From the NCBI GenBank assembly GCA_951406725.2, contig OX597831.1, positions 4,278,001 through 4,342,000 of the forward strand: a stretch of 64,000 nt of DNA, written 5' to 3'. The position numbers and the translations under genes were made by a program. The notes beneath the pieces are model-generated. The model searched no databases and was not told the origin of the DNA. It saw only the letters and a list, made by a program, of their open reading frames with translations. The DNA comes from Octopus vulgaris. Its lineage: Eukaryota. Positions 21,314-21,822 of this stretch are shown in pieces (position 1 is the stretch's first letter; the number at the start of each line of letters is the position of its first letter).

Positions 21314-21822
21314 TACTACTATTAAAAAGGATGGAGCTGTTTTCTCTACAGAAAAAACATTCCATCAGGAAGTGTGGCAGTATATTAAAGAACCTTAACA
21401 GTTAAAAATTATAAATATCTTATAAGCAAGGGCTAAAGAAGATTATTCTAAAGCCAATATACCGATATTCCACATTTAATCCGCTTGCTACATAAAATTG
21501 AACTGAAAATCGGGCAACTAACCGTTGGAACGTTTAAGTTTCGTTATCTCAATATTGAATCAATTTCGGAATTAACCACACAAGGGTTCGATCTTCATCA
21601 GTTGAGCGTACGAGGGGATATAAGTAAGGTACTCACATGCGTACATGGAAACAGCCGAAGCGGATAACACAAATACATTTAAGTAACTCAATTATATCTA
21701 AAAATAAAAATTCCTAGGTCAGTCTCAGGACAACATGACTTCTCGCCGCTACATATTGAAGTGGTTACAAGTCCCTTGTAGCAGGCGGTAATGAGTTTAC
21801 TACTATTAAAAAGGATGGAGCT
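21314..21822 (-). mobile_element. HHR-containing 484-nt retrozyme/PLE-like unit with 25-bp terminal redundancy
   Basis: TACTACTATTAAAAAGGATGGAGCT at 21314-21338 and 21798-21822; flanked by (TA)n; homologous to 3702-4470. Confidence 0.85.
21541..21613 (-). ncRNA. Type I hammerhead ribozyme
   Basis: Minus strand TCGT-ACG-CTCAA-CTGATGA-[AGATCGAACC-CTTGTGT-GGTTAATTCC]-GAAA-TTG-ATT-CAA-TA-TTGAG-ATA-ACGA; canonical core; stem II partly mismatched. Confidence 0.8.

Follow-up and report, generated by a model that had tools for sequence, protein, structure and literature searches.

The window analyzed here, a 64,000-nt stretch of the Octopus vulgaris genome (contig OX597831.1), holds two insertions of a short repeat, at 21314-21822 and 3702-4470. 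The first consists of one 484-nt unit, whose RNA sense is the minus strand, together with an exact 25-nt terminal repeat (21314-21338 = 21798-21822) that cannot be extended in either copy. TA-rich tracts lie on both flanks. The sequence-only reading had described this unit-plus-repeat layout, the (TA)n neighborhood, and the lack of coding capacity, and each description proved correct: the longest ATG-started frame has only 26 codons and encodes neither reverse transcriptase (RT) nor endonuclease (EN). The whole unit folds with a z score of -2.9. Elsewhere in the window, open stretches at 22453-22968 and 46393-46959 resemble, by eye, the C-terminus of a non-LTR element and a DNA-transposase fragment. 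The features of the two insertions are as follows.

21314-21822, minus strand (RNA sense): whole insertion, a single arm of 1.05 units (484-nt unit plus 25 nt)
21314-21318, minus strand: site A, fixed 3' terminus that closes the ~100-nt tail and abuts (TA)n, presumed RT start; used by 54 of 121 arms
21330-21366, minus strand: predicted hairpin whose end is ~16 nt 5' of site A; two-sided change in 4 of 12 pairs
21379-21463, minus strand: predicted domain around site B, closed by the helix 21379-21386/21456-21463, with a hairpin at 21431-21455 whose end is ~15 nt 5' of B; C-G/U-A and A-U/U-A swaps
21410-21419, minus strand: site B, the other fixed 3' terminus, here located inside the copy, presumed RT start; used by 55 of 121 arms
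21541-21613, minus strand: type I hammerhead motif, core CUGAUGA at 21601-21595, predicted cut 21553/21552 (AUA)
21631-21636, minus strand: splice-donor-like GTGAGT, ~10 nt after CCATG (GTAAGT in other subfamilies); order as in the pLTR of a 781-aa autonomous family
21692-21698, minus strand: candidate pLTR promoter, a TATA-like GATATAA ~50 nt upstream of the ATG
3702-4188, minus strand: B-ended arm of 1.0 unit, hammerhead core at 3909-3903
4194-4470, plus strand: inverted A-ended arm of 277 nt, abutting (TA)n

The hammerhead motif was located where the sequence-only reading had placed it, and the minus-strand fold of 21541-21613 holds CUGAUGA, GAAA, and AUA, with the cleavage-site A at 21553. 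In this copy, stem III comprises 3 bp plus the core A-U pair. A strict scan requiring three paired bases at the foot of stem II caught the copy at 3909 and missed the one at 21314, with 0 matches in 20 Markov-resampled windows, indicating that stem II of the 21314 copy is weak. The subfamily to which this copy belongs is young and has the weakest stem II. Each unit of the family carries the motif, recognizable by its core and covarying helices, yet Rfam returned no hammerhead match at the gathering threshold or at E<=10. When 39 copies (38 distinct) were aligned, 90.5% of cells were paired, and two-sided changes occupied 47 cells vs 16.5 in shuffles that do not preserve relatedness, exceeding all 500 of them. 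Stem I showed three two-sided swaps, and the core was almost invariant. Only 9 of 38 copies form the basal pair of stem II; this position can also be read as an extra nucleotide before G10.1 followed by a bulge, and an extra nucleotide there is reported for hammerheads of Penelope-like elements (PLEs; PMC4209133). The register of the cut site was kept in 91 of 92 family texts, obtained from 97 pattern matches of which five were unrelated.

The copy at 3702 had been interpreted as a permuted version of the same unit. Its shifted start (the segment at ~21410-21419, about 100 nt into the unit) and its read-through of TACTACT at 4108 stand; the inverted arm at 4194-4470, which terminates at the point where the 21314 copy begins, had been overlooked. 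The two copies are only 75-85% alike by block and belong to different subfamilies. A fragment of a LINE-type reverse transcriptase frame lies just left of this insertion, at 2992-3531.

Genome-wide (2.8 Gb, 227 contigs), the 23-nt hammerhead core had 571 exact matches and a 20-nt degenerate pattern beside site B had 2359, some loci entering these counts twice; the reversed control gave 0 in each case. Unit length ranges over 484-508 nt among subfamilies that are 78-97% alike. A sister family with a 466-nt unit, about 70% alike to the 484-nt family, has the same layout. This sister family (L061:5040-5484, L217-L246) is young (96% alike, 2770 candidates) and shows a canonical G-C stem II, a compensated stem III, and the same A/B ends. 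The earlier picture of a multi-copy, non-coding, hammerhead-bearing repeat with more-than-unit insertions and PLE-type hallmarks is supported. Several other small hammerhead-bearing repeat families were seen beside (TA)n in the flanks of eight loci (L020, L039, L069, L094, L146, L166, L181, and L194), and PLE 3' ends seem to generate tracts that later elements use. The literature searched on octopus and cephalopod retrozymes, hammerheads, and non-autonomous Penelope elements contained no account of this family, which Repbase or Dfam could hold. The 484-nt unit is a new family of an already known class.

To characterize the ends, 112 loci were mapped, of which 75 were kept after duplicate removal; they had been chosen by likeness to three query units and the hammerhead. 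Their 121 arms start at site A (unit position 1-15) in 54 cases, at site B (88-108) in 55, and elsewhere in 12, and a TA-rich flank was present at 88 of the 109 fixed ends. The 5' ends, in contrast to these two fixed sites, are ragged and scattered over the unit. Variable start points had been taken as a sign of a circular template; random permutation of start points is ruled out, with 109 of 121 arms beginning at A or B. The sequence-only reading had held that termini common to all copies would tell against its proposal. Termini of that kind were found in part: the start points are not random, and the fixed A/B pair is the one seen in autonomous PLEs. Likewise, the 25-nt redundancy, previously considered a trace of a circular or tandem template, marks the point at which the cDNA stopped after 1.05 units. 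More-than-unit arms occur in the similarity-ranked sample, where 32 of 109 exceed 510 nt, and 4 of 89 exceed 520 nt in a second sample, drawn with the site-B pattern. This second sample was position-ordered along contig 1, skipped places already sampled, and yielded 62 insertions from the first 30 matches and 40 further listed places.

The two fixed ends are combined in a strict manner. Among 41 head-to-head insertions in the similarity-ranked sample, 33 were A/B, one was A/A, and seven had an unclassed end; 33 of 34 classed cases corresponds to p = 4e-9 against a 50% expectation. The site-B pattern sample gave 23 A/B, 2 B/B, and 12 unclassed among 37 two-arm insertions, and the sister family gave 10, 1, and 5, respectively, among 16. 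A further 30 hammerhead-pattern loci, read by eye, contributed 5 A/B and 1 B/B. Pooled over the non-coding families, A/B pairing reached 71 of 76 when cases with an unclassed end (7/41, 12/37, and 5/16) were left out, the five homotypic insertions being one A/A and four B/B. In these 71 of 76 classed mirror-image insertions, the inverted arm is 5'-truncated and the tail is present at one end only. Because independent site choice would give half homotypic products, the observed rule indicates that the two priming events are coupled.

An inverted arm might also arise by fold-back self-priming of a single cDNA, with no second priming on the target. Fold-back has been suggested for palindromic junctions of PLEs (PMC3846280); some junctions of mirror-image insertions are perfect palindromes, and 16 of 31 simple A/B insertions could have arisen this way. 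In the remaining 15, including the window copy 3702-4470, itself an A/B mirror-image insertion, neither arm is nested in the other, which is incompatible with fold-back. Moreover, fold-back offers no prediction that the second arm should stop at the other fixed site. We therefore regard it as an unlikely source of the inverted arms and favor a second priming on the target.

The template appears to have extended through the ribozyme. The cut site was crossed by 85 of 109 arms, ten of them twice, and 5' ends did not accumulate there: 1 of 109 fell within q236-243, and 1 of 89 did so in the site-B pattern sample, in which many 5' ends mark alignment drop-off and are unreliable. Together with the register kept in 91 of 92 texts, these crossings require a template that is continuous across the cut site. 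The two arms of one insertion differ by 3.7%, vs 3.3% to the nearest locus and about 11% to the median locus, and successive passes of one arm differ by a pooled 3.5%, vs 3.6% and about 11%. Arms and passes are thus far closer to each other than to the median locus, placing them in the same subfamily; since the nearest other locus is equally close, these values do not in general demonstrate that passes derive from a single molecule. At one locus (L018), however, three passes differ by 0.3-1.3% vs 2.1-2.5% to the nearest other locus, and private variants are common to the passes. A long tandem master was also considered and set aside: recurrent first/second-pass differences occurred at 13 sites among 212 differences, mostly from two loci, and one was a flank artifact.

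These observations bear on the proposal of a non-LTR retrozyme, in which tandem repeats are transcribed, cut to monomers, circularized, and reinserted from variable points of the circle. The seamless read-through of cut site and unit junction in arms of up to 2.6 units, the conserved and covarying hammerhead, and the passes at L018 agree with it, as does a circle model proposed for PLEs in PMC4209133. Additionally, about five tandem hammerhead pairs that could release a monomer were present among the first 100 listed core matches. Against it, start points are fixed rather than variable, and no array longer than 2.6 units (the longest arm, 1318 nt) was found among the best 40 of 2847 candidates or among the listed pattern matches. 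The family is dispersed rather than organized as a retrozyme-type satellite. Retrozymes are recognized by tandem repeats with at least two hammerheads, and most loci here hold one; the 21314 copy, having a single hammerhead, could not release a unit-length circle by double cleavage. Furthermore, eight of nine Xenopus retrozyme dimers failed to cleave, and an in vitro study describes hammerhead cleavage as dispensable for PLE insertion, unprocessed RNA being the main substrate (PMC11167929). A retrozyme in this full sense is possible, although the fixed ends and the scarcity of tandems make us doubt it.

A GIY-YIG family scan of the genome recovered many autonomous PLEs, and two families were examined. 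One has two ORFs, including a 781-codon RT+GIY-YIG frame; the other encodes RT+GIY-YIG in a 4271-nt unit. Both carry a CX2-5CxxC motif before GIY-YIG, a feature given for Neptune and Nematis in PMC8557442, and by this motif both are putatively of Neptune/Nematis type. In each family, a hammerhead is followed by two fixed ends joined to (TA)n. The distance from cut to B is 70 and 141 nt vs 138 nt in the 484-nt unit, and the B-to-A tail measures 38 and 28 nt vs 99 nt. The first 100 of 1724 pattern matches of the 4271-nt family include 18 minus-then-plus pairs, and in 18 of 18 the tail was at exactly one end. Five of these 36 ends were assigned by eye, and six pairs with 2-9 kb between their members were each taken as one insertion, the interior unread. 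Multi-unit read-through (4271-nt spacing) also occurs in this autonomous family and is hence no special retrozyme trait. The 781-codon family (L061-L070) is very young, about 99% alike with many intact frames; its hammerhead is a U3/A8 variant, and its separate upstream 479-codon ORF, which had no Pfam match, is unusual for the single-ORF PLE model. At contig 1:27840961-27849523 (L341-L343), the 4271-nt element forms exact tandems of two to three units and has its site A at an internal (AT)7 run matching the target.

Alternatively, the copies could be no more than end fragments, truncated or deleted, of a single abundant autonomous PLE, with no self-propagating mini-element. Their pLTR-plus-tail anatomy (TATA-like box, ATG, donor, hammerhead, B, A) is what such ends would show, and the search for a parent at GIY-YIG loci scored 150 of 6136 candidates. 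Among the 62 GIY-YIG loci so obtained, none shared DNA with the unit or carried its pLTR, in keeping with the sequence-only reading; the sole matches were chance AT-rich ones and one neighboring sister-family insertion. No parent emerged from the GIY-YIG scan and 32 stretches, the flanks of family loci, or a DNA search. Among 30 position-ordered hammerhead-core matches, none continued into coding sequence, and PLE protein fragments in the flanks of five loci were separate neighbors. In every subfamily, and likewise in the sister family, the tail instead leads directly back into that same 484-508-nt unit, and the closed unit has been kept in several subfamilies 78-97% alike. Truncation of a parent is therefore largely refuted and is, in our estimation, the least probable of the accounts weighed here.

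The unit itself contains candidate cis-acting elements. For the fold of the A-B region, 67 copies were thinned to 18, and 16 diverse ones were used after two with deletions were left out. In these, one predicted hairpin stops about 12-16 nt short of A, and a second, stopping about 15 nt short of B, belongs to a closed domain. The helices contained 17 two-sided cells vs 6.8, above all 500 shuffles, for a structure drawn from the same alignment and shuffles that do not keep relatedness. Upstream of the hammerhead, the TATA-like box, ATG, and GTRAGT donor follow the order and rough spacing of the 781-aa family pLTR, from which we infer putative promoter or splice activity. A 61-nt spliced mini-exon was considered and weakened: its acceptor-like AG, overlapping GATATAA at 21692-21698, is retained by 45 of 66 copies and missing from the sister family, and no joint appeared among the rows listed. 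A transcription start with added C's at q462 was ruled out, the position being a subfamily sequence variant. The unit is covered by assembled contigs from four sequencing runs, three presumed to be RNA and the fourth of undefined type. One of these contigs spans the cut site; contigs of this sort are blind to ends, strand, and circles.

PLEs are the closest relatives of telomerase RT. Taken together, the 484-nt repeat is best explained, with a probability of roughly 85%, as a non-autonomous PLE, a gutted pLTR plus tail, copied into (TA)n by the RT and GIY-YIG endonuclease of a Neptune/Nematis-type PLE; we infer both the mobilizing enzyme and the pLTR ancestry from anatomy. The endonuclease would cut both strands of (TA)n, whereupon the two 3'-OH ends would prime cDNA at different sites, one at A and one at B, with a predicted hairpin marking each. 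A single RNP with two coupled RT subunits would probably carry out this dual priming. Survival of both cDNAs would leave them joined head-to-head; survival of one would leave a single arm such as 21314-21822. Published in vitro work (PMC11167929) describes a purified PLE protein, predicted to be a dimer, that cuts and extends both strands of AT-rich DNA, with reverse transcription starting at two internal RNA sites bounding the tail, and a tail at only one end of inverted PLE insertions is described in PMC8557442 and PMC3846280.

The template would run without a break through both the hammerhead cut site and the unit junction. The most probable of three candidates for it, at somewhat under even odds, is a ligated monomer circle; an uncleaved tandem transcript is somewhat less probable, and template jumps between cleaved monomers are the least probable of the three. 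A circle, plausible for this family, would account for both the conserved ribozyme and the absence of long arrays; a 2-3-unit locus transcribed without cleavage would fit too, as would precise template jumping. More tentatively still, a PLE RT dimer on a single 484-nt RNA circle, with one subunit at each hairpin-marked start site, might prime both ends of the double-strand cut at once; we consider this combined arrangement possible, with the odds against it. If true, the one-A-one-B rule would be the general mechanism of inverted, tail-at-one-end PLE insertion, and the unit its minimal natural substrate.

The family shares many features with EN+ Neptune and Nematis PLEs (PMC8557442, PMC3846280, PMC11167929, PMC4209133): two fixed 3' ends downstream of a type I hammerhead, a donor site upstream of the hammerhead, 5' truncation, partial tandems, (TA)n targets, and an inverted arm joined head-to-head, one end bearing the tail. 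However, it lacks an ORF, its unit is 484-508 nt, no parent was found in the searches above, and its tail is about 100 nt vs 28-40 nt in autonomous PLEs. Animal non-LTR retrozymes (PMC7229834; bioRxiv 10.64898/2026.07.22.740005) likewise have a small AT-rich non-coding unit, a type I hammerhead, head-to-tail read-through, and proposed PLE dependence; the preprint lists four invertebrates in its supplements, three insects and one anthozoan by its text. In contrast, the 484-nt family is dispersed, with 0.05-2.6 units per arm and no arrays, and has one hammerhead at most loci and fixed PLE-type sites as ends. Non-autonomous Chlamys elements such as MRC1 are described in PMC8557442 as non-coding PLE parasites with pLTRs and head-to-tail insertions; their 3' sequence is common to known autonomous families of a clade without canonical hammerheads, whereas the present family is animal, hammerhead-bearing, and without a parent found. 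The 484-nt family is likely a dispersed non-autonomous PLE allied to retrozymes; it may work like a retrozyme if the circle exists, and it bridges these two groups.

The making of tandem and inverted PLE insertions is described as still undefined in PMC8557442, and the PLE accounts consulted place the tail at one end only "often" or "optionally". This asymmetry has now been counted, at 71 of 76 in the non-coding families and 18 of 18 in an autonomous family. The exclusion of fold-back for about half of the simple cases and the location of candidate cis-acting hairpins yield predictions for the existing in vitro system. With a strict A/B rule and two covarying hairpins, the long-open mechanism of inverted PLE ends becomes testable on a 484-nt substrate.
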